From Candidatus Thorarchaeota archaeon (lineage in GTDB: Archaea; Asgardarchaeota; Thorarchaeia; Thorarchaeales; Thorarchaeaceae): a stretch of DNA of 64,000 nt. Of the stretch, positions 1 through 11,995 are shown one piece after another. The stretch covers positions 76,547 through 140,546 of the forward strand of contig JAGSHN010000018.1 of the NCBI GenBank assembly GCA_029855935.1. The letters run 5' to 3'. Position 1 is the stretch's first letter. The number at the start of each line of letters is the position of its first letter. The position numbers and the translations under genes are program-made. Under the pieces are notes generated by a model. The model did not search any database. It was not told the DNA's origin and worked only from the letters and a program-made list of their open reading frames with translations.

Positions 1-1
1 T

Positions 2-349
2 GCCCGGATGTTGTGGGAGAACTTGGTCGATGTGATCATCAAAGAGACCGGTGTTCGATGGGGCTTCGCTGTCCTGTCGATGCTCTTCTTCGTCGGGTTC
101 CCGCTCGTTGGTGGACTGCTCGGCTGGATTGCCACGGCAAGCCTTGTCCACGCCTTTCTACTGGCAGTGGTCTTCCTTGTATTCGCCTCGATTCCTAGCA
201 CCCTGATGCTCAGGACATTCGACATCGTCTACGTCACACTACTCTACGCGTTCATTCGCCAGGAGAAGGGTGAGATCAAGGGCAAGCTGGGCATTCCGGC
301 GGCCGTTCACAAGGACCTTGCGTCTGCCTATCAGAGAGCAGTGAAGTAG
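2..349 (+). CDS. Membrane protein, 5'-truncated by window edge (DUF6159-like)
   Basis: Frame open from position 2; two hydrophobic helices; W-E motif resembles the DUF6159 C-terminus (recalled, not searched). Confidence 0.6.
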   Translation, partial: ARMLWENLVDVIIKETGVRWGFAVLSMLFFVGFPLVGGLLGWIATASLVHAFLLAVVFLVFASIPSTLMLRTFDIVYVTLLYAFIRQEKGEIKGKLGIPAAVHKDLASAYQRAVK

Positions 350-511
350 TCGTGGGGTCGCGGCGGCCGAACAGCTGCCGCTCATCCCCATCCCGTTTAT
401 CAATCGAGATATCACCAGCGAGATGCCAGCGGACCACTCCCTAGCGACAGGGTGGCATACACCCCAACAGACTAAAGCGACTAGGCAGCGATTCTCTCCC
501 GGTGAAGAGAG

Positions 512-1522
512 ATGGACGCTGAGACCGCTGCTGCGAACGCCCTTGAGACTGTCCTCGAGGCGCGGCCGGGCGAGTCTGTTCTAATCGTGTGCGACGATGT
601 CAGAAGAGAGGTAGGTGAGGTCTTCGCACGTGGCGCCATGAGCCTCGGACTCTGGACCCGAATGGTCGTCCTCAAGACCAGTGAGGACGAGTACAGGACC
701 AAGGTCCCACCCGAGCTTCTGGAGATGATCAACTCTCCACATCAGCCGGATATCTTCATCAACATCCTGCGAGGTCCTGCACAGGAGACCCCCTTCAGGA
801 TAAAGATAATCGACCTAGAGACGAGAAAGGGCAGGTCCAGGCTCGGCCACTGTCCGGGCATAACAATGGACATGCTGACGGAGGGTGCTCTCTCTCTTAC
901 ACGCGAGGAAACAAAGGAGATGCAGGAGAGAGCCAAGAACCTGCTCGCGCTCTTACAGGACGTCGAGGCTGTGCACGTCACAGCACCGGGTGGTTCAGAC
1001 TTCACCCTGAGTGTGAAGGGACGCACATGGTTCACCGACACGGCCATTGACTGGAAGACTATGAAGTGGATGAACCTCCCAACGGGAGAGGTACTTGTCG
1101 GGCCTGTCGAGACATCTATGAATGGTGTCCTTGTCTCCGACCTCGCGGCCGGGGGCATCGGTCCGCTGAAGGCACCAATAACAATCAGGGTCGAGAACGG
1201 TATGGTCGTCGATGTCCAGTCTGACGACGAGGAGGCGCTCAAGATCGTACGCGAGACGCAGGCCACTGACAAGATGGCCAAGTTCGTGGGAGAGTTTGCC
1301 TTCGGACTGAATCCTCGGGCGAGGCTGGTCGACGAATTCCTTGAGAGCGAGAAGGTGAGTGCGATACACGTTGCCTTTGGAAACAACAGGGACTATCCAG
1401 GCGTGACGGCCAATAACTCGGCGACGCATCAGGACTTCCTCGTCAGCAGGCCCACCGTCGAGGTCACCTACGCAGACGGGCGCACAAGAGTTGTGATGCG
1501 CAACGGCGAACTCCTACTGTAG
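512..1522 (+). CDS. M29 thermophilic metallo-aminopeptidase (AmpS/aminopeptidase T-like)
   Basis: NLPTGE, GEFAFGLN, ESEK, HVAFG and HQD motifs. Confidence 0.9.
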   Translation: MDAETAAANALETVLEARPGESVLIVCDDVRREVGEVFARGAMSLGLWTRMVVLKTSEDEYRTKVPPELLEMINSPHQPDIFINILRGPAQETPFRIKIIDLETRKGRSRLGHCPGITMDMLTEGALSLTREETKEMQERAKNLLALLQDVEAVHVTAPGGSDFTLSVKGRTWFTDTAIDWKTMKWMNLPTGEVLVGPVETSMNGVLVSDLAAGGIGPLKAPITIRVENGMVVDVQSDDEEALKIVRETQATDKMAKFVGEFAFGLNPRARLVDEFLESEKVSAIHVAFGNNRDYPGVTANNSATHQDFLVSRPTVEVTYADGRTRVVMRNGELLL

Positions 1523-1531
1523 GTCGACCGC

Positions 1532-2770
1532 TCACCTGAGCCAGTCGAAGGCCTCGTTCCACGTGGCACTAGAACCGGAGAACGGATTGAGGTAGAGAGT
1601 TCTGAAGAATTCTGCAGTGCGGTTGGTCTCAACCGCTCGCTCCCACGTCGGCAGAACGTACTCTGTTCGCCCGAAGTAGTACGTGTACACGTAGGGAGCC
1701 CAGAAATTGACCCTCCCATCCTCGGTCTCTGGAGAGATGAAACGTAGTATGGCGTTGGCTCGCCTCTCATCGACCAGCCCGGCCTCCATCACATATCGAC
1801 GGGCCTCGCTGGTCGTCCAACCCTCGACGTTCAGCATATAGGCGGCATTGATGCGCACGGCCTGTCGTAGCTCGCGAAGAGCATTGACAATGACAGAGCG
1901 CCAGCCCGTCTCCTTTACTCCGAGAAAGTCCCTCACAGTGTCGGCAACACCCTCGGAGATCACGCAGCGCCCCGTGTGAAGCGGGACAATGCTCAGTTCC
2001 GTGTAGCCGTGCTCGCGATAGGCGCGCTCGCGCCAGACGTTCGAGACGTGATGACCATATTCGTGGTACACGACGTTTGTCAATGAGTCCCGATTGAAGG
2101 AGCGGTCGATGTTGAACTGGTTGATTGAGCGATAGTCCCCTTGATAGTAGTTGTAGCCGCCCCACGCTCGGTCCTGAACGGCCTCGTACTTCACACCGTT
2201 GTCAGTGACAGACGCGCCTAGACAATTGAACACACGTTCCGCAAAGAGGCGACCAATCTCCTTGGCCCGGGGCTGAAGAGTCTCCTCAATGACACGCTTA
2301 AGTTCAGCACCCTCTACTCGCCCCGAGTCCTCGAACGAGACAACCGACTCGAATAGCTGAGAGTCGTCAGTCACGTCAAGCGCCTCTGCAACCCTCTCCC
2401 GGAGGCCCTCGACAACGGTATCGGGAAAGCGCCGTGCCTCGACTCCAAAGAAACCCATGACCAGCGTCTCATATGAGACCGACCTGCCATCAAGCCACTC
2501 CACTACCTTTGCCAGAGACTCGGCCTCAGACGCTACATACTCGCCTCTCAGGGGCGGCTCCGTCAGCTCCTCGCGGGCTGTGTCAGCCACAGCCATCAGA
2601 TATGCGTGGAGTTCTTCGCCCTCACGGTCCTTCCTCTGGCGATCTGGATGTAGCTCATCCGGCCCGAAGTACGCATCGACAACGCTCACTCCTGTGAGCC
2701 TCTCACTGAGATGACCCACCTCGCCGCAGAGCCTGACGAACATCTCACCAGGGTCGAACAATCCGTTCAT
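1532..2770 (-). CDS. Gluzincin-like zinc metallopeptidase (DUF885-like)
   Basis: YHEYGHH (HExxH) followed by ISEG third-ligand motif; YTYYFG near C-terminus. Confidence 0.65.
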   Translation of the reverse strand: MNGLFDPGEMFVRLCGEVGHLSERLTGVSVVDAYFGPDELHPDRQRKDREGEELHAYLMAVADTAREELTEPPLRGEYVASEAESLAKVVEWLDGRSVSYETLVMGFFGVEARRFPDTVVEGLRERVAEALDVTDDSQLFESVVSFEDSGRVEGAELKRVIEETLQPRAKEIGRLFAERVFNCLGASVTDNGVKYEAVQDRAWGGYNYYQGDYRSINQFNIDRSFNRDSLTNVVYHEYGHHVSNVWRERAYREHGYTELSIVPLHTGRCVISEGVADTVRDFLGVKETGWRSVIVNALRELRQAVRINAAYMLNVEGWTTSEARRYVMEAGLVDERRANAILRFISPETEDGRVNFWAPYVYTYYFGRTEYVLPTWERAVETNRTAEFFRTLYLNPFSGSSATWNEAFDWLR

Positions 2771-2876
2771 CCCACGCTCAACTGGGTTGTCGTCCTAATA
2801 AGAACCATCCGGACGCCAAGGCAGAGCACCGGAGGGTTTCCCAGTTAATTGATACGGTCAAAGGAGGATACCATCA

Positions 2877-5045
2877 TCACCGGAATCCACCAGACACGCA
2901 GGCACTATGACATGCACTGTGACAGGCACTATGACAGACACACGCGGAGTGGCACGCACTATGACATGCACTGTGACAGGCATCGTGTGACACGCAGGCG
3001 CTATGACAGGCGTCATGGGAGACGCAGCGACTTGTCGTCTGGAGTATCTGCTGGAATGGTGCCGTTATGGTCTGCGCCACTCCGTTCAGGATAGAGCCGA
3101 TGGTGTTCGTCACGTCCGAGATGACCTGCCCCACGGTGCCGGCCACTTCACCGACAACCTGTGTGGTACCTGATGCTCCTGACCTCACAGCCTCGGAGAC
3201 ACCCCTGAACCAGTCTGGGACTGCCGTCGTGCTGACCGGCGTCTTGTCAGATCCGAGCACGTCAGTGATGCGCGAGTCGTGACGAGGATCCATGTAGAGC
3301 CAGTACCACGCCCACGTGTCGTGTGTCGAGCCATCAAAATAGTAGGATACCTTCTGCTCGGGCGCAGGCTGCGACTCGAGCTCCTGCCAGGCTGACTCGA
3401 TCATCTCCTCATTGTGATTCTTGGTGGCCTCAAAGTCGGCGTTCCAGACCTTTTCCTGCACCTTGTCTGCGATGTCCTCGATTAGCTCATCGACCTTTGC
3501 AGGATCGAGCTCACCGTCGACTATCGCCTCAAGGAACTTCTCCTCGTAGTACGTCAGGTCCTCGAAGCGCAGGCCAGTGACGGCCAGCTTCAGCGGGTCT
3601 GTGGAGATGATACGGACAGCCCCCTTTCGAACACACGACATCAGTATCATAGTGACGAGTCGGTCTCGTGTCAGATTCTGGAACACTGCAGCCTCAACAG
3701 GGTCGAGCTCTGCCACCACGCCGGGTTGGCCAAAGGTCTGAATCTCTATCGTTGGCGACTCATACGCAAAGGTGGTTTCGTCCGCCGACCACACTGCGCC
3801 ATAACCACGATGAGCGGAGAGAGCATAGAGGACAGCTCCCAACAGGAGGACCCCAAGAAAGACCCAGACACCCCACGGCACTGAGGCCAATGATGATCCC
3901 ACACCAGGTGGAACCCACCCGGTCTGCGGCGGTGAGACGAAGATCTCCACACTGAATGACAGCTGCTGATTATCCGAACCGGTCACCAGGAACGTGATCG
4001 TCCTCGTGGTCTCAGCCTCATTGGCGATGAGCGTGTAGTCCAGCTGAAAGCCCTCTCCACCGTCCAGAGTACCAAGGTATCTGGTCGGTGCCCCCGAGAC
4101 AAGGGTCACGTTCTCTGGTAGCGACATCGTGGCCACTACGTCATAGATGGGTGCGTCACCGACGTTATAGACAAGGACATGGAGATCAAAGGACGATGAG
4201 GCGACGACATTGAGGTAGGATGGTGCATCATACGCAAGGAGGCCGGGAGCCAAATACGCCTCGTAGAAGCTCCAGTTCGTGTAGTGGAATACCACAAGAT
4301 GCTCGTAGGCATAGACCGGCGAGGCCTCCAGACTCACACTGAAGTTGCGTGGCTGTCCCGGTGGCCCGGTGGTCGGATACGCAAGTAAGTTCACCTCATC
4401 ATAGGAACGATAGTTGCCCGAGTTGTCCTCTATTCTCTGACGCGAGTCCACGACATACCCTGCATACTCCGCACCCTCCGGGGTGATGCCACCTTCTCCC
4501 GTGATGTAGGAGGAGTTTATCAGGATTGGATAGACGACACGAATCGTCTCTGTGCCGACATCCTGCTCCCACTGAACGGGCGCCCAATGGAACACTCCAT
4601 ACTTGACACCCTCTTCGGTTTCCGTGAGCTCTACGACCCTGTTCAACGAATAGTATCCGAACACGACGAGGACCGTCTGCCCGGCCTGAGCCCGCGGGGT
4701 CCAATCCAGCCCATATCCATCTGAGAGAGTCGTAATCACCAAGTCGTATCTCTCACCAGCGATCTCGACGTAGGCACGACTACGGTCGGGCTGAGAGGTC
4801 TCCTGAATGCCTCTGAGGTCAAAGCCCCCAAGCGACCCAGAGACCACGTCAAAGGTCATCCAGTAGGTGACGTTCAGTCGCCCATTCGGTTGTACTATGA
4901 CCTCCACGTCAATCCTGTCAATGTCCACCACGGGGCTCTGCGATGGCGTGGACGCAGCCGCAGCTGGTGCGATCAGAAGACCGACGAGGGGTGAACCCAA
5001 GACGAGGAACAGCAGGCATCTTGCAGCGATAGTGGCACGACGCAA
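2877..5045 (-). CDS. Single-pass membrane protein (DUF2207-like/CARDB-like ectodomain) with C-terminal Cys/His CHSA-repeat tail
   Basis: Signal peptide, beta-rich ectodomain, TM VPWGVWVFLGVLLLGAVLYALSA, cytoplasmic domain, tail CVSHDACHSA...CVSGGFR. Confidence 0.8.
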   Translation of the reverse strand: MRRATIAARCLLFLVLGSPLVGLLIAPAAAASTPSQSPVVDIDRIDVEVIVQPNGRLNVTYWMTFDVVSGSLGGFDLRGIQETSQPDRSRAYVEIAGERYDLVITTLSDGYGLDWTPRAQAGQTVLVVFGYYSLNRVVELTETEEGVKYGVFHWAPVQWEQDVGTETIRVVYPILINSSYITGEGGITPEGAEYAGYVVDSRQRIEDNSGNYRSYDEVNLLAYPTTGPPGQPRNFSVSLEASPVYAYEHLVVFHYTNWSFYEAYLAPGLLAYDAPSYLNVVASSSFDLHVLVYNVGDAPIYDVVATMSLPENVTLVSGAPTRYLGTLDGGEGFQLDYTLIANEAETTRTITFLVTGSDNQQLSFSVEIFVSPPQTGWVPPGVGSSLASVPWGVWVFLGVLLLGAVLYALSAHRGYGAVWSADETTFAYESPTIEIQTFGQPGVVAELDPVEAAVFQNLTRDRLVTMILMSCVRKGAVRIISTDPLKLAVTGLRFEDLTYYEEKFLEAIVDGELDPAKVDELIEDIADKVQEKVWNADFEATKNHNEEMIESAWQELESQPAPEQKVSYYFDGSTHDTWAWYWLYMDPRHDSRITDVLGSDKTPVSTTAVPDWFRGVSEAVRSGASGTTQVVGEVAGTVGQVISDVTNTIGSILNGVAQTITAPFQQILQTTSRCVSHDACHSACVSHDACHSACHSACHSACVCHSACHSACHSACVSGGFR
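2880..3026 (-). repeat. Coding tandem repeat CHSA/CVSHDA (12- and 18-nt units)
   Basis: 49-aa tail with 11 Cys and 9 His; DNA units such as gcactatgaca/gcactgtgaca differ at synonymous sites. Confidence 0.95.
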
Positions 5046-5048
5046 GTC

Positions 5049-5375
5049 TCACTTTCCCTCCGAACTCAACTTCTTGGCCGTCGACCGCAGCAACGACTCT
5101 GCAGCCTCCATATGGCCGAGTGCGGACTCGATGGAGTCATGGGTCTCGTACCAGTCGATAGAGCCAATCGTGGTGCGAACAGCCTGAAGACTGTCAGCGC
5201 CGTTCATCAGCATCGTAGACAGGGGTACGTGCAGCTGCCCAACAACATCGTGGCGCTTGAGGTATTCGACAAGGACGGACTCAACGAAGTCGTCAACTGT
5301 CGTGTGGTTCTCACTTCGACTCACGAGCCTCTCCAAGAGCTCGTAGACCACCTCTGAGATCTCCACCGAGACCAT
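5049..5375 (-). CDS. Small protein with ribbon-helix-helix-like N-terminus
   Basis: MVSVEISEVVYELLERL...TVDDFVESVL pattern; 3 nt from the next gene. Confidence 0.55.
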   Translation of the reverse strand: MVSVEISEVVYELLERLVSRSENHTTVDDFVESVLVEYLKRHDVVGQLHVPLSTMLMNGADSLQAVRTTIGSIDWYETHDSIESALGHMEAAESLLRSTAKKLSSEGK

Positions 5376-5391
5376 TTCGGGTCAGGCTCTC

Positions 5392-5787
5392 CTATTCACC
5401 TCTCCGGGCCCTGAGGACCTCAGCCTGTGCCAGCGTCAGGTTCGAGAGGTCAGCCTTGGCCTCCGCCCACTCGTTCAGCGACGGAAACTCCTGAATCATA
5501 CCGCTCCAGACAAGGTGATAGACACGCTTGAGGATCTTGGTGGGGTCGCCATCCGTACCGACGTACTCGAAGAACGCCTTGATCACTGCTGGCGACTGCT
5601 CCGAGATGTTCTGTGGTACCTCGGTACCGAATCCCGCAAATGCCACCTCCATCTCCCTGAGAACATCCATCCGCTCCCTTATCCCTGCTGCAATGACGGG
5701 GAGGTCGATGTCAAAGGCACTGAAGCGCATCACCAGTTTCTTGTCGGTTATTGTGCCGTATGGTAGAACAATCTCACGCGAACTCAT
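5392..5787 (-). CDS. Hypothetical protein (131 aa, start MSSREIV)
   Basis: ATG at 5787 avoids overlap with the divergent radical SAM gene; protein-like composition. Confidence 0.65.
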   Translation of the reverse strand: MSSREIVLPYGTITDKKLVMRFSAFDIDLPVIAAGIRERMDVLREMEVAFAGFGTEVPQNISEQSPAVIKAFFEYVGTDGDPTKILKRVYHLVWSGMIQEFPSLNEWAEAKADLSNLTLAQAEVLRARRGE

Positions 5788-5921
5788 CGCACTTCTCTCC
5801 AGAGGTCTTGTGCGAATGAGAGCCCATGAGCAGATAAGCATTTCATCTGTCAGTGTGGTGGCGATGCCAATCAGTTTATCCGCCCTGTGGCGATTGAGTA
5901 CAGGGACACGGAGACGAGGCA

Positions 5922-7340
5922 ATGAGGCTGCCCGCGTACAACTATGCGATTGAGGACCTCGAATGGGTACCACATTTCATCTCTGAGGTGAGGGACTACT
6001 TCTTCGTACGACCACACGACAACCTGCTGATACTCCGACCCAACAAGGTCATGCATCTCAATCAGACAGCAGTGGAGATGCTGAAAAGGCTGCTTGAGGG
6101 GCAGAGCCCTGAGCAGGTCGTAGAGGCATTTGTGAAGAGAGGGGTCCACAGGCAGACAGTGATGAACGACCTCGCAGCGTTCGTCGAAGACCTGCGAGAG
6201 ATGGTCTCGGGAAACCAGAACATCTACTCCTACCGCACGGCACGGATCGTCCCCTTCGGAAAGAGCGAGATCAAGTATCCCGTTCTGAGCGAGATAGCTC
6301 TGACGTACAGATGCAACAACAGATGCAAGTTCTGCTATGCTTATTCCCCCTATCGCGAGTCGGGCGAGATGACGACGGATGAGGTCAAGCGGGTGATTGA
6401 CATCATCGCCGATGATGCTCACGTCCCCAGCCTGTCCTTCACTGGTGGCGAGCCGACTCTCAGAGACGACCTGTTCGAGCTGATCCGTTACGGACGCCAG
6501 AAGGGTCTGAGGATGAACCTCATCACCAATGGTCGACGGTGTGCTGACCCCGACTTTGTCCAGCGGCTCGTGGAGGCAGGACTGAACAGTGCACAGGTCT
6601 CGGTCGAGGGGCCTGATGCAGAAACCCACGATGGTATAGTCGGTGTGAGAGGCGCCTTCGAGCAGACCGTAAAGGGGGTGAAGAACCTCAGGGCGACTGA
6701 CATCTACACGCACTGCAACACCACAATCTGCAGGCCCAATGTCGACCGACTGGAGGACCTTGTCGACTTCTACAAGGACGAGCTGGGTCTCTCATACTTC
6801 AGTATGAATATGGTCATCTACACGGGGACCGCCGCAAAGCTGCGCGATGAACTGCAGATAAGATACTCGGAGATAGGTGACATCGTGCGAAGAGTACGCA
6901 GGCGTGCCAAGAGGAGGGGCATCGAGTTTGTGTGGTACGCCCCGACACCCGTGTGCCTCTTCAATCCCATTGCCAACGGTCTGGGAGCCAAGATGTGCGC
7001 GGCCTGCGATGGTCTGCTGTCCGTCGACGCAGAGGGGGGCCTCCTGCCGTGCTCCAGCTTCAGCGAGCCAGTTGGCAACCTGCTCAGAGAGGGCTTCGAG
7101 AAGGTCTGGTACAGTCGTGCGGCGAAGTTCTGGAGGAACAAGGAATACGCGCCAGAGGGCTGCAGGAGATGTGATATGTTCGACTACTGCATGGGTGCCT
7201 GCCCGCTATACTGGGATGTACAGGGCTATGACGAGATCAAGGACCAGTGGCCAAGGCGCAGCGCAGCAGCCTCAAAGATCGATGAGTGGAGGCTGACCCT
7301 GCGGAGGAGGATAAAGGGGCATCAGCACGGCATTACGTAG
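5922..7340 (+). CDS. PqqD/RRE-domain radical SAM/SPASM peptide maturase
   Basis: N-terminal LNQTA..ML..L...EQVV...DL..FVEDL (RRE-like); CNNRCKFC; TGGEP; SPASM CAAC...PC...CRRC...C...CP. Confidence 0.9.
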   Translation: MRLPAYNYAIEDLEWVPHFISEVRDYFFVRPHDNLLILRPNKVMHLNQTAVEMLKRLLEGQSPEQVVEAFVKRGVHRQTVMNDLAAFVEDLREMVSGNQNIYSYRTARIVPFGKSEIKYPVLSEIALTYRCNNRCKFCYAYSPYRESGEMTTDEVKRVIDIIADDAHVPSLSFTGGEPTLRDDLFELIRYGRQKGLRMNLITNGRRCADPDFVQRLVEAGLNSAQVSVEGPDAETHDGIVGVRGAFEQTVKGVKNLRATDIYTHCNTTICRPNVDRLEDLVDFYKDELGLSYFSMNMVIYTGTAAKLRDELQIRYSEIGDIVRRVRRRAKRRGIEFVWYAPTPVCLFNPIANGLGAKMCAACDGLLSVDAEGGLLPCSSFSEPVGNLLREGFEKVWYSRAAKFWRNKEYAPEGCRRCDMFDYCMGACPLYWDVQGYDEIKDQWPRRSAAASKIDEWRLTLRRRIKGHQHGIT

Positions 7341-7381
7341 AGAGTGCAGACTAATAGGGGGCCTCGTTTCACACGCAGGGT

Positions 7382-8515
7382 ATGCATATCGACGACCTTG
7401 TCACTCCGTCTGTCCTTGTGGACCGTCCCAGGCTCCTGCGCAACATCGAGCGGATGGCAAGAAGGACCCGTGAGCTTGGTGTCGCTCTCCGGCCGCACGT
7501 CAAGACCCACAAGTGCATAGAGATAGCGAGGATGCAGGGGAGTGCTGGCATCAGAGGCATCACCGTGTCAACCCTGTTCGAGGCCCGGGTCTTCGCAGAT
7601 GCGGGATTCGATGACATCACCTATGCTTTCCCCATCGCGCCTGACAAGTTCAGTGTTCCAGGTCAGCTCGCTGAACGCGTGAGTCTCAACGTCATCCTCG
7701 ACAATCCTGTCACCGTTGATGCACTATCCGAATACTGTGAGAGCAATGACCTCATAATGAATGTCCTGCTCAAGGTCGATGTGGGCTACCATCGTGCAGG
7801 AGTTCTGTGGGACGATCCTGCCGCGATACATCTTGTTGAGAGAATTGCGCGTGCTGGTGGTCTGGAGTTCAGAGGAATCCTCACTCACGAGGGCCACGTA
7901 TACGACGCCTCTACACCAGATGAGATCAGAGAGATCGAGATGACCTCGCAGAGGAGGATGGTTGACCTTGCGGAACGACTGGCTCGTCACGATGAGCGAC
8001 TGCGCCCTGAGGTGGTGTCTGTCGGCTCCACTCCGGGCTGTTCGTTGATGACCGAGGTTGTTGACGGGATAACCGAGGTCCGCCCGGGGAACTACGTCTT
8101 CTATGACTACGAGCAGGTCGCTCTCGGCTCCTGCACGATAGATGACTGCGCATTGCTGGTGCTTGCATCGGTCGTCGGAACGTATGGGGACAGGCTCATC
8201 ATTGATGCTGGAGCCACCACACTCTCGGTGGACGCGGGACCAGTACATCTCGAACCAGACTGCGGGTTCGGAAAGATTGTGAGCAACGGGGTTCACCGCT
8301 CGATCGATGATGCATTGGTGATTGCGGGTCTGTCACAAGAGCACGGAAAGATCAGAGTGAGAGAGAAGGGGGCCTCAGCAAGATATCGGGTGGGGGACCG
8401 CCTCTGGATTGTTCCCAATCACTCGTGCCTGACCGCCAACCTGTCGGACTGGTACGTCGTCGTCGATGGTGATAGAGTAGTCGACAGGTGGGGAATTCAT
8501 CGCGGCCGGCTGTGA
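7382..8515 (+). CDS. Fold-type III PLP enzyme, D-threonine aldolase/D-serine dehydratase (DSD1) family
   Basis: RPHVKTHK PLP lysine, GSTP, RPGNYVFYD, SQEHG, PNHSC. Confidence 0.9.
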   Translation: MHIDDLVTPSVLVDRPRLLRNIERMARRTRELGVALRPHVKTHKCIEIARMQGSAGIRGITVSTLFEARVFADAGFDDITYAFPIAPDKFSVPGQLAERVSLNVILDNPVTVDALSEYCESNDLIMNVLLKVDVGYHRAGVLWDDPAAIHLVERIARAGGLEFRGILTHEGHVYDASTPDEIREIEMTSQRRMVDLAERLARHDERLRPEVVSVGSTPGCSLMTEVVDGITEVRPGNYVFYDYEQVALGSCTIDDCALLVLASVVGTYGDRLIIDAGATTLSVDAGPVHLEPDCGFGKIVSNGVHRSIDDALVIAGLSQEHGKIRVREKGASARYRVGDRLWIVPNHSCLTANLSDWYVVVDGDRVVDRWGIHRGRL

Positions 8516-8532
8516 GCAGAGGACTCGACAAC

Positions 8533-9246
8533 TCAGTCGACACGATTGACTATCAGATGTCCGCAGTAGGGACACTCCTCCTCTTCGCCAGGGAGGACAG
8601 GGGCCTCGAGACGTCCTCCGCACTGAGGACACTTCGTGATGGCACGAGGCAGCTCGGCAACAGCCTCTGCGGTGTACACGACCCTCGAGTTCCGGTCAAT
8701 CGTCCCACGGAACTTTCCAGCACGAGAGAGTTCCTCCAGTGCCTCCACGATCTGCTCGTCCGTCGCATTGGTCACACGGGATATCTGATCGAACGTCATC
8801 CTCCGCTGAGCATAGAGAAGATGAAGCAGACTCTCCTGCAGGCTCACTGCACCGGGACTGACAATCTCACCATGTGCTGCGTCGAGATACACGAGCGGGA
8901 ACTTCCGGCGTGCCAGAGCCTCAGCCACATCTGCAACGTCCGAGACGCTGACGCCCAACTCCCGAGCGGCGGCCTCCAACCCTATGCGTCCCTCTCTCTG
9001 CACGAGCGCGATGACTCTGCTGGACACATCACCAATTCTTGCCGCGCGCGTTCCCTTGATCAGTAGCCACAGTCCCACAGCGAGCTCGGGCAGGCCAAGG
9101 ATGGCCCATGATATCACCACCGCGGAGATAAACGTCGTGGACGATCCGGCTGCCACCTTCAGGGCAGACTGGTAGACGAGCACTGACATGAATGCTGAGA
9201 CAGCAATCAGCACGATTCCAAGGAACTGGAGTAGGCGTGCATTCAT
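8533..9246 (-). CDS. Two-TM membrane protein with winged-helix/PCI-like repeats and C-terminal zinc ribbon
   Basis: Two N-terminal TMs; two HTH-wing segments; CPQCG...CPYCG. Confidence 0.7.
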   Translation of the reverse strand: MNARLLQFLGIVLIAVSAFMSVLVYQSALKVAAGSSTTFISAVVISWAILGLPELAVGLWLLIKGTRAARIGDVSSRVIALVQREGRIGLEAAARELGVSVSDVADVAEALARRKFPLVYLDAAHGEIVSPGAVSLQESLLHLLYAQRRMTFDQISRVTNATDEQIVEALEELSRAGKFRGTIDRNSRVVYTAEAVAELPRAITKCPQCGGRLEAPVLPGEEEECPYCGHLIVNRVD

Positions 9247-9792
9247 CGAGATTCACTCTTGTTTCGCAATGGCAATTGGGGAATTATATATTTCCAGATC
9301 GGGAGTGAGCATAGATTGACAACACATACAAGATTGAAGCGCGCCCACATCAGCATAGAAGCGTGTCTGAGAGCAATCCTCTTGCCTATCGAATCGTCGC
9401 GCAATCAAGAGAGAGAACCTACTACGTATCGGAGAAACAGAGCAGGGACTGGAGGTATGTGCGATTGTGGAGCGGGCGTTGATATCGTTTTTCCTCACAA
9501 GAACGAACGGAATGATAGGAAGGGACATTCCGAGTCGGCAAAGCTGCCACTGACTCGGGGAATTCAATCAGACACAAGATGATGCCAGCGGAACTTGGTC
9601 ACTTCGTAAATCGCCTCGTACCAAGCCCATTGAGAATCCTGCTACCATTCCCTATTGGGATTTCGTTCTTGTGGGCGCGAGGCTTCTCATTTCTTGGCTC
9701 AAGACAAGACCAGTTGGAATGAACCGTTGCCCATATCGCGAAACATTCATTTCAAAGAATGAGGGAGAAGAACAGGGACGGGAAAGACCACA

Positions 9793-11286
9793 ATGCAAGA
9801 AGAAGGAACTGATCTCTCCACGGACTTCGTGCGATTCCATATCACGAATCTTGGACCATTGAGGAAAGCTACGATTGTCCTGCGCCCATTGTCGGTTTTC
9901 ATTGGTCCAAACAATGCTGGAAAGTCGTATGTGGCCACAATCATCCACGCGCTTGGCACTTCGTTTCTCTCGGCGGAATTCCCTTGGAGGGCAGTCTTTT
10001 CTTCCGATGACTACGTAGTAGATAAGAAGAAACGTCTTGATGCGAAGTTGCTGGAGAAAATTGTTCAAGCAGTGGGCTCCAATCTCGGAGATCTGGGCGT
10101 TGTCGGAGGACTCGTAGAGGATCGCACGGCGAAGATTGTCCGCTGGACACTTGCGGGACTAGAGCGCTCAATATCCGGTGAGATAGTGCGTTCATTCTCC
10201 TGTAGGCTCAGCGACATCGTTAGATTCGGCGCCAACAAGATGAGGATAGTAGTGGAGAACAGGTATTCGGACTACGAAGTCACTGTATCAAAGACTGGCG
10301 AGGTCAGCCTCAGAGTTCGCGACATTCACTTGCCGATCAAGAGAGCAGACTCTGGCATTCCCTACATACCATCAATCAATCGTGAAGTCATTGCAGGCTG
10401 GATCTCACACCTTTTGACGGCAAGCAAACCTGAGCAAGCGGCTCGAGCCATTGCCGATGTGGCTGTTGTCCTGACAACGCTGGGCATACTCTATCCCCTC
10501 GTCGGAGTAACAAACAGCCTGTACCTTCCAGCAGCAAGAGGCGGTTCTGTCCAGACCTATCGCTCACTTGCAGCTGAGTATGTTCTTCAGCTTCCATTTG
10601 CCCTCTCCGAGCCCCAGTCAAGGCCACCCACCCTGAGCAAGACGATGGCTTTGCTCTTCGCAAAGATGATTAACATGCCCGATGAGAGAGGCCCATTGGC
10701 CGAGATTGCTGAGGAGTATGAGGCTAGAACGACAGGAGGACACATTGAAATAGTACAAGACTCAAAGCATAAACTTCCACGTCTAGAGTTCAGATATGCC
10801 GGGCATTCAATGGGACTTCAGAGGGTCTCATCCTCGATATCAGAACTGGCTCCGCTGTATTTGTATCTAAAGTATTATGTCACACCGAAGTCAATGTTGA
10901 CAATCGAGGAGCCAGAGGCCCATCTTCATCCGGAGAACCAGCTGATAGTTGCAAAACTGATTGCCCGCCTAGTCAACGAGGGAGTTGTCCTGCTAGTCAC
11001 GACACATAGCGACTATCTGCTAAATCAGCTGAGCAACTGTATTGGTGCATCAAGACTCACATCCGAACAAAAACAAGCACTTGGCATTCTAGACAGCGAA
11101 ACTTTGCCATCTGACAAGGTGGCCATATATCTATTCGAAACAGTTGGTGATGGAGAATTCACAACACGACAACTATGCATAGACTGGGAAGGTATCCCGG
11201 ATGATGAGTTCTCAAAGGTATATGAGCAACTATATGAACAGTCGGTATTGATAGATACTGCACTCTCTCGCCCTGGTGACAGGTGA
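9793..11286 (+). CDS. ABC-type ATPase (AAA_15/AAA_21 class), putative defence sensor
   Basis: GPNNAGKS Walker A, VSSSISE signature, IEEPEAHLHP Walker B/D-loop, TTHS H-loop; lower GC. Confidence 0.9.
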   Translation: MQEEGTDLSTDFVRFHITNLGPLRKATIVLRPLSVFIGPNNAGKSYVATIIHALGTSFLSAEFPWRAVFSSDDYVVDKKKRLDAKLLEKIVQAVGSNLGDLGVVGGLVEDRTAKIVRWTLAGLERSISGEIVRSFSCRLSDIVRFGANKMRIVVENRYSDYEVTVSKTGEVSLRVRDIHLPIKRADSGIPYIPSINREVIAGWISHLLTASKPEQAARAIADVAVVLTTLGILYPLVGVTNSLYLPAARGGSVQTYRSLAAEYVLQLPFALSEPQSRPPTLSKTMALLFAKMINMPDERGPLAEIAEEYEARTTGGHIEIVQDSKHKLPRLEFRYAGHSMGLQRVSSSISELAPLYLYLKYYVTPKSMLTIEEPEAHLHPENQLIVAKLIARLVNEGVVLLVTTHSDYLLNQLSNCIGASRLTSEQKQALGILDSETLPSDKVAIYLFETVGDGEFTTRQLCIDWEGIPDDEFSKVYEQLYEQSVLIDTALSRPGDR

Positions 11287-11780
11287 GCCATATGAGCGTG
11301 GTTACCTGCATCAGGAAAGAGTATGCCAACTATGTATATCGATGCAGGGAGAGAGGAAGCAGGGTCGATACTACTGGTATTGAATGTGTTGTACTCTGGG
11401 GCGATGCGATTGAGAGAGATTTCATTGGGAATGCCATGCTTCGTAAGAGCTGTGATTGCATCATCATATCCGAATGGAAGGAGGATGTTATAGTCCTTTT
11501 TGTTGAACTAAAGAGGGGAACTGTCAAGGCGGACGATTGCATCGTCAAGATGCAGACCTGCTACGAACACGCCACGAATATTCTTCAGCACTGCTCAATT
11601 CGGCCGACTGGCTGGAATCCAATCTTTCTCGTTGTTCATAGACGTATGAAGACACACGAGATGGCTCAGCTGAGATCGAAACGAATGAGATGCGGCGGAA
11701 AGAGATATCCAATATGGTCGCGGCCGAGCCCATTGAAATTACGGGAGCTTGTGGAGAGATGGCATCAATTCGTCCAATGA
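11283..11780 (+). CDS. Putative PD-(D/E)XK nuclease-fold partner of the ATPase
   Basis: 4-nt GTGA overlap; CDCII...FVELKRG motif. Confidence 0.55.
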   Translation: MSHMSVVTCIRKEYANYVYRCRERGSRVDTTGIECVVLWGDAIERDFIGNAMLRKSCDCIIISEWKEDVIVLFVELKRGTVKADDCIVKMQTCYEHATNILQHCSIRPTGWNPIFLVVHRRMKTHEMAQLRSKRMRCGGKRYPIWSRPSPLKLRELVERWHQFVQ

Positions 11781-11995
11781 GAGTCAGAATCCGATTCAAC
11801 TCAATATGAGTTGCTCATTGAGTCGGTACTTACTGAGTGCGTGAGAATCAGCAAGCACATGCTGGCAACGTGACGGATGCCAGATACCTATTGGGGTGTT
11901 CCCCAGATAATCGGCGGAGTATCTGCCCGAATGATTTAATTAGAGAGAAAGACACTGTGAGAAACACGTTACACACCCTGAAGGACGTATTTGCA

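Follow-up and report, generated by a model that had tools for sequence, protein, structure and literature searches.

The last 49 residues of a membrane protein of a Thorarchaeota archaeon are probably the substrate of a radical S-adenosylmethionine (SAM) enzyme that is encoded close to it, as judged from comparative data. The two genes lie in a 64,000-nucleotide stretch of Candidatus Thorarchaeota archaeon (GenBank assembly GCA_029855935.1, contig JAGSHN010000018.1, positions 76,547 to 140,546), which is called the window in what follows; the host genome comprises 2.97 Mb in 32 contigs. The membrane protein, c1, ends in a repetitive tail rich in Cys and His. The enzyme, c2, carries a PqqD-like RiPP recognition element (RRE; RiPPs are peptides made on the ribosome and modified after translation) in front of radical SAM and SPASM domains. 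With a small soluble protein, c3, and a membrane protein bearing a zinc ribbon, c4, these two are best explained as a four-gene module, the core of which is an enzyme-substrate pair.

The fuller proposal, to which a little less than an even chance is given, is that about eleven consecutive crosslinks, or some other Cys-based modification, are placed on the tail of a receptor-like membrane protein and form a retained module there, possibly metal-binding or redox-active. Asgard archaea, other archaea and Chloroflexi would have the system in common, the tail being almost the same in all of them, and c3 and c4 would be additions made in Thorarchaeota. In the published literature no paper was found on a system of this kind, whether described as DUF2207/SPASM, ACGX, CXXX-repeat or RRE with a membrane-protein tail, and no searchable family model names it. 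What is new is the four-gene Thorarchaeota unit with its clean syntenic deletion, the lineage-specific c3, the test of synonymous and nonsynonymous change in the tail, and the exclusion of a neighbouring peptidase.

The tailed membrane protein and the neighbouring enzyme

A preliminary description of this DNA, made from the letters alone, had singled out the end of c1, and the reading frame is as it was described: 722 codons, the final 49 residues holding 11 Cys and 9 His, with the terminus GGFR. The DNA of the tail is an imperfect 12/24-nt repeat. In the whole genome, a tail of this description was found in one of 22,499 stop-to-stop open reading frames (ORFs). It had also been stated that no free small Cys-rich precursor is visible, and none was found in positions 1–10,000 of the window, where all frames rich in Cys coincide with real genes that are read in a different frame.

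Forty related genomes were searched, and the family referred to below consists of this genome and 24 others. In pairwise comparisons among 13 family genomes, the 49 codons of the tail gave 2284 synonymous and 77 nonsynonymous differences in 3822 codon comparisons, against 1503 synonymous and 1589 nonsynonymous differences in the 49 codons that precede it. This pattern indicates that the tail is constrained as protein rather than as DNA. Hardly any change is seen in the tail from genus to genus or from domain to domain. When Thorarchaeota and Chloroflexi are compared, most columns of the tail are invariant, and identity in the body of c1 is 24–32%; one Chloroflexi homologue is 35% identical to c1 over the cytoplasmic half. 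A phmmer search of a representative library with residues 590–722 of c1 returned 25 hits. The short tail-bearing proteins among them were considered as free precursors and rejected, since they look like fragments of long proteins.

The protein c1 consists of an outer domain resembling DUF2207, a single membrane helix, a domain in the cytoplasm that is like GPP34 and DUF2207_C, and the Cys-His repeat tail. A hydrophobic N-terminal segment (residues 3–32) and the single membrane helix (residues 383–412) imply that the C-terminal 310 residues, tail included, should be cytoplasmic, and the predicted topology agrees with the location that had been assumed for the tail. The DUF2207 membrane proteins (PF09972, PF20990) are similarly built: an outer domain and a membrane helix are joined by a helical domain in the cytoplasm, and the C-terminus is a tail of low complexity. 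The window protein c1 scores 21.6 bits with PF09972, the N-terminal domain, under the cut-off of 24.4, which its relative P0152 passes with 25.0 bits. Some bacterial relatives of c1 (P0152, P0156, P0135 and others) carry the precomputed Pfam accession PF27846, a recent entry that may already cover part of the family.

The model of the cytoplasmic domain has a pLDDT (the predicted score in the local distance difference test) of 80–94 for approximately residues 446–600. Its best matches among solved structures, though weak ones, are GOLPH3 and Vps74, which have the eukaryotic GPP34 fold (Z 5.6 and 5.5, 159–168 residues aligned), the next match having a Z of 3.3. Shape matches of c1 to DUF2207 and DUF2207_C clusters of the Atlas span template modeling (TM) scores of 0.41–0.65. 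With the cytoplasmic domain, DUF2207-type clusters score 0.62–0.65 and a bacterial GPP34 cluster 0.41/0.52. There are hints in these models that the cytoplasmic domains of DUF2207 proteins and GPP34 share one fold. The GPP34-like domain of c1 is not a special link between Asgard archaea and eukaryotes, since the bacterial homologues carry it too. An amphipathic helix is predicted just before the tail (pLDDT 63–83), and it is a candidate recognition, or leader-like, segment. A similar segment precedes the tail in the Chloroflexi proteins and in proteins with tails of a Cys-Ala type, which are described below.

The divergent gene beside c1 had been read as a PqqD/RRE radical SAM/SPASM enzyme, and all three domains score above their Pfam cut-offs, the radical SAM core (PF04055) with 97.7 bits and the other two as listed in Table 1. 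The SPASM signature CX2CX5CX3C is found at C414–C427, and two auxiliary clusters are expected in this region from its Cys residues. The components of an RRE-dependent radical SAM/SPASM maturase are all present: the core, a seven-Cys SPASM region, the RRE and a co-encoded, Cys-bearing candidate substrate. None of the NCBIfam equivalogs reaches its cut-off on the enzyme; the best models, AhbD, NirJ2 and PqqE, are far below theirs. The nearest solved chains, at low similarity, are PqqE, SkfB and CteB (E 2e-19 to 9e-10), all of which act on peptides. Across the family the enzyme is 72–82% identical. Prediction of a complex of the enzyme with residues 636–722 of c1, SAM and three 4Fe-4S clusters did not return an answer (score 0.00) and is used neither for nor against binding.

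Distribution of the pair and of its partners

The functional link between tail and enzyme that had been suggested on the basis of this one locus holds up in other genomes in three respects: the two genes have the same pattern of presence and absence in the 25 family genomes, they are adjacent across Asgard archaea and Chloroflexi, and the clade of the enzyme follows the type of tail. They are not distributed independently. Homologues of c1, 47–60% identical, are present in 19 of the 24 other family genomes, and the enzyme is present in the same 19. Where the assembly allows, the two are always on one contig, a few kb apart. When c1, c2, c3 and strong matches to c4 are considered together, 20 of the 25 genomes have all four; in the remaining five (G010, G014, G016, G017 and G022, 88–98% complete) none of the four was found.

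At the syntenic site in G017 the genes are, in order, c12, the M29 aminopeptidase gene, the peptidase gene that adjoins c1 in the window, an unrelated 376-aa gene, c7 and c5; the genes for c1, c3, the enzyme and c4 are all absent from it together. Because exactly these four genes are missing while the peptidase and c7 remain, the module is defined as having four genes, with the peptidase and c7 excluded from it. Most family loci have c7 in the place between the enzyme and c4, but two (L032 and L036) do not have it there, and G017 keeps it without the module; c7 is thus regarded as a passenger. In another genome, G011 (contig C14:71964-76138), the enzyme match ends at residue 239 and contains TAA, and c1 is in two pieces (residues 19–358 and 444–722); this may reflect either decay of the module or an error of assembly.

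Related pairs are present in Asgard genomes outside the family. The enzyme of G029, 46% identical, adjoins a long membrane protein with a tail of the CHSA type ending in GGWG. In G025 and G028 the enzymes are 36% and 35% identical, respectively, and each adjoins a long membrane protein with a Cys-Ala repeat tail ending in GGGR. On contig C15 of G025 (L020:1-1249), the gene for the Cys-Ala-tailed protein is followed immediately by the start of another SPASM-type radical SAM gene, which runs off the contig end, so that in this genome one tail protein is flanked by two enzymes of the kind. Chloroflexi have enzyme homologues of approximately 50% identity. The gene order in these bacteria is tail protein, enzyme, a coiled-coil protein of about 390 residues and a 163-aa membrane protein with winged helix-turn-helix (wHTH) and zinc-ribbon segments, and the tail gene ends 9–270 bp before the enzyme gene.

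A scan with the enzyme alignment over one genome per species yielded 80 loci, 31 of the Thorarchaeota type, 47 bacterial and 2 from other archaeal phyla. The bacterial loci all belong to Chloroflexota classes, except for one labelled Armatimonadota and one labelled Propionibacteriaceae. Where the locus extends at least 3 kb upstream from the enzyme, a tail ORF lies beside it in 25/25 from Thorarchaeota, 31/38 from bacteria and 1/1 from other archaea. A maximum-likelihood tree of 40 enzymes was constructed, with support from the Shimodaira-Hasegawa-like approximate likelihood ratio test (SH-aLRT). All enzymes with a CHSA-type tail next to them group in a single clade (SH-aLRT 100), which includes those of Thorarchaeota, G029, bacteria and two other archaeal metagenome-assembled genomes; it does not include the enzymes of G025, G028 and G035. 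The Thorarchaeota enzymes are monophyletic (97) and sister to the bacterial group. The direction of transfer between the domains is not readable from this tree. The enzyme clade appears to follow the type of tail rather than the organism, and this match is supportive rather than strong, because the tree includes only two pairs of the Cys-Ala type and G029 is on a long branch.

The two remaining members of the module differ in their reach. The small protein c3 is 68–79% identical across genera. It has 166 database relatives, and every named taxon among them is an Asgard lineage, mostly Thorarchaeota or Promethearchaeota. As judged from these sequences, c3 is a core partner specific to the Thorarchaeota lineage. 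It is modelled as a small alpha/beta sandwich (pLDDT 76), and no convincing match to this fold was obtained with Foldseek (best E 0.018), with VIA (best Z 7.3), the matches being to common alpha/beta arrangements, or among Atlas features (nothing above 0.86). A relationship of c3 to the coiled-coil protein that follows the enzyme in Chloroflexi (392 aa) was considered and rejected, with an hhalign probability of 0.5%.

In c4, two membrane helices and segments like a winged helix are combined with a zinc ribbon, CxxC...CxxC, at the C-terminus. Its profile aligns weakly with that of the 163-aa Chloroflexi neighbour (probability 86.6%, E 4.5e-6), and the two have the same layout. Membrane zinc-ribbon proteins also adjoin the pair in G025 and G029. 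In view of these neighbours, a membrane wHTH/zinc-ribbon protein seems to be a recurrent third component. At the level of BLAST, neither the 392-aa nor the 163-aa Chloroflexi protein has a homologue in this Thorarchaeota genome. The matches to c4 in three genomes were flagged as containing one TGA, and selenocysteine was considered; it was rejected, since the TGA is the stop codon at the end of the gene.

Proposed modification of the tail and other explanations

The proposed reaction would begin with binding of the C-terminal region of c1 by the RRE of the cytoplasmic enzyme, probably by way of the amphipathic helix before the tail. By 5'-deoxyadenosyl radical chemistry, the radical SAM core would take a hydrogen from a residue within each short Cys-His-Ser-Ala unit. 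The thiolate of the neighbouring Cys, kept in place at one of what would be two auxiliary clusters, would then close a thioether ring. Repetition of this closure along the tail would produce a run of short intramolecular rings of the ranthionine or sactionine type, which is the most likely product. Two CVSHD units of the tail resemble the Cys-X3-Asp type of ranthipeptides. A ladder of thioethers is proposed here only tentatively, with doubt outweighing confidence. Once modified, the tail would remain part of the protein and form a rigid module beneath the membrane that may bind metal, and c3 and c4 would work alongside the enzyme and the tail.

Several observations weigh against this proposal. 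In the ACHS units the residue that would accept the thioether is not obvious, and only the CVSHD units fit the published Cys-X3-Asp type. All of the evidence on modification is comparative. The spacing of Cys and His at i/i+4 and the strong constraint would also fit a metal-binding helix. The model of the tail has a pLDDT of 29–43, so that nothing can be said on its shape and no structural argument is to be had from it. The two genes are not adjacent in 7 of the 38 bacterial loci; five of these seven exceptions were searched as whole genomes, and a full-length tail protein was found elsewhere in all five. In G035 (89% complete), which has an enzyme of the Cys-Ala branch, a tail protein was not found with the query used.

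The alternative that survives best, and which is considered rather unlikely, is that the tail is an unmodified module for binding a metal (Zn, Cu or Ni) or an iron-sulfur cluster. The enzyme would then act on something else in the same pathway, for example c3, c4, a lipid or a small molecule, or the tail would serve it for docking, for conducting electrons or as a source of sulfur. The 11 Cys and 9 His in a regular i/i+4 register are in keeping with this, as are the zinc ribbon of c4 and the conservation of c3, a protein without known function, to a degree like that of the enzyme. Co-inheritance alone would fit a substrate or a partner equally. However, peptide substrates are what an RRE binds, and the enzyme has one at its N-terminus; its clades also track the sequence type of the tail. 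The register is also kept from Chloroflexi to Asgard archaea, whereas the metal-storage tails of other proteins vary in length and sequence. With respect to c3 as the object of the enzyme, the bacterial and other archaeal versions lack c3 and keep the enzyme-tail pair.

It is improbable that the tail is a fused RiPP precursor which, after modification, is cut by the neighbouring DUF885-like or M29 peptidase to give a free Cys-rich peptide. Two peptidase genes do adjoin c1 in the window, and the region before the tail resembles a leader. The preliminary description had raised release of a peptide by proteolysis and had pointed to the peptidase gene next to c1 (1532-2770), but this gene is not co-distributed with c1 and the enzyme. 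It was not found in G005, G019 and G020, all of which have the pair, and it is present in G014 and G017, both of which are without it, staying in place where the module is deleted; in G007, G013 and G024 it is on other contigs. Release of the tail by proteolysis is therefore unsupported. Moreover, the Chloroflexi cassette has no conserved protease or exporter, and a body of 600–700 residues accompanies the tail everywhere, the short tail-bearing proteins being apparent fragments. It is very improbable that the neighbourhood is coincidental synteny conserved in one family, since, although gene order within the family is kept for unrelated genes too (e.g., c5, c6, c8 and c9), the pairing recurs in other orders and orientations, in other Asgard lineages, archaeal phyla and bacteria, and the four genes are lost together with their flanks remaining.

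The surrounding locus and related systems

The positions of the genes and of the features within them are given in Table 1. The distance of 0.9 kb that had been noted between c1 and the enzyme is correct (877 bp), but it is not an empty spacer, for it holds the accessory gene c14 and the highly conserved c3. Only 5 of 14 family loci have a recognisable c14. The gene at 1532-2770 had been called a gluzincin. Its HEYGH motif is present, and its neighbour among Atlas features is DUF885-like (score 0.96, to be taken as a lead only), but no Pfam or NCBIfam model matches it.

Table 1. Genes and features around the c1–c2 pair (positions in the window; aa, amino acids)
Feature	Position	Strand	Basis or remark
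M29 aminopeptidase	512-1522	+	First gene of the region
412-aa HEYGH protein	1532-2770	-	HEYGH motif only; unmatched by Pfam and NCBIfam models
c1, 722-aa single-pass membrane protein, proposed substrate	2877-5045	-	ORF
c1 tail, residues 674-722	2880-3026	-	Units ACHS and CV(S)HDA; end GGFR
c1 pre-tail amphipathic helix, about residues 638-671	3033-3134	-	Predicted helix
c1 cytoplasmic globular domain, about residues 446-655	3081-3710	-	Structure model
c1 membrane-spanning segment, residues 383-412	3810-3899	-	Hydropathy scan
c14, 108-aa accessory gene, directly upstream of c1	5049-5375	-	No family match
c3, 131-aa soluble protein, core partner	5392-5787	-	True start M63 of a 193-aa ORF
c2, 472-aa PqqD/RRE, radical SAM and SPASM enzyme, proposed tail modifier	5922-7340	+	Pfam matches
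c2 RRE (PqqD-like) domain, residues 37-93	6030-6200	+	PF05402, 30.8 bits (cut-off 23.4)
c2 CX3CX2C motif, C131/C135/C138, for the SAM-binding 4Fe-4S cluster	6312-6335	+	Sequence; invariant in the enzyme alignment
c2 SPASM region, C345, C359, C377, C414, C417, C423, C427	6954-7202	+	PF13186, 28.1 bits (cut-off 21.5); Cys columns invariant in the enzyme alignment
c7, alanine-racemase-fold/D-serine-dehydratase-like gene, between the enzyme and c4	7382-8515	+	
c4, 237-aa membrane wHTH/zinc-ribbon protein, fourth module member	8533-9246	-	Same-genome distribution

Beyond c4, positions 9300–11,800 of the window have a G+C content of 0.45–0.52, compared to approximately 0.57 around them. This segment encodes a 497-aa AAA_15/AAA_21 ATPase, the best match of which is the defence model PD-T4-4_A (E 4.9e-35), and beside it a 165-aa protein without a match. 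Since c5 comes directly after c4 in the sister genomes, these two genes resemble a defence-type islet inserted here only.

Among known systems, the closest is that of Methanococcus voltae, in which the archaeal RRE-radical SAM-SPASM enzyme CrpC installs ranthionine links, assigned by mass spectrometry (MS), on the whole soluble repeat protein CrpA (published 2026; PMC13692751). In both cases an archaeal enzyme with an RRE and radical SAM and SPASM domains is encoded beside a repeat-bearing, Cys-rich protein. The window enzyme is not a member of the CrpC family (TIGR04463), with which it scores 59.4 bits against a cut-off of 525. CrpA is soluble and has a 17-residue repeat, whereas the candidate target here has a 4-residue repeat and forms the end of a protein that is integral to the membrane.

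The CXXX-repeat (TIGR04115/TIGR04117) and ACGX (TIGR04340) systems likewise place a radical SAM/SPASM enzyme next to Cys repeats with a period of four residues. The window enzyme differs from the maturases of both, scoring 21.7 bits with TIGR04115 (cut-off 350) and 87.4 bits with TIGR04340 (cut-off 400). The model for the CXXX-repeat target, TIGR04117 (cut-off 50 bits), had no match on the tail in a search of the whole genome with E up to 10. The NCBIfam names describe the CXXX and ACGX targets as a peptide or as a small 'target protein', in contrast to the tail of a membrane protein of 600–950 residues. The sactisynthases and ranthisynthases SkfB and CteB, as well as PqqE, have the same order of domains as c2, that is, RRE, radical SAM core and SPASM/twitch, and have Cys-containing substrates. 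Their substrates are free peptides with cleavable leaders, while no conserved exporter or leader protease accompanies the pair described here.

For a crosslinked protein that is retained, a precedent may be seen in quinohemoprotein amine dehydrogenase. There the radical SAM enzyme QhpD makes intra-chain crosslinks in QhpC, the gamma subunit, which stays a functional subunit (PMC7876137). Unlike c1, QhpC is small and soluble; it has three crosslinks and carries a quinone cofactor, and it has neither a repeat tail nor a membrane anchor.

To our knowledge, RRE-bearing radical SAM/SPASM enzymes are recognized almost only as makers of small secreted peptides, and CrpC is a first archaeal example in which a whole soluble protein is the target. 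The likely target here is the tail of a large membrane protein. The four-gene form in Thorarchaeota gives a context to two highly conserved genes that are otherwise orphans. Since bacteria and Asgard archaea have tails that agree in almost every letter, any structure made on the tail must serve a precise function. If the proposal is correct, chemistry of the RiPP type would be used in these organisms to build an organ of a membrane protein instead of a secreted peptide.

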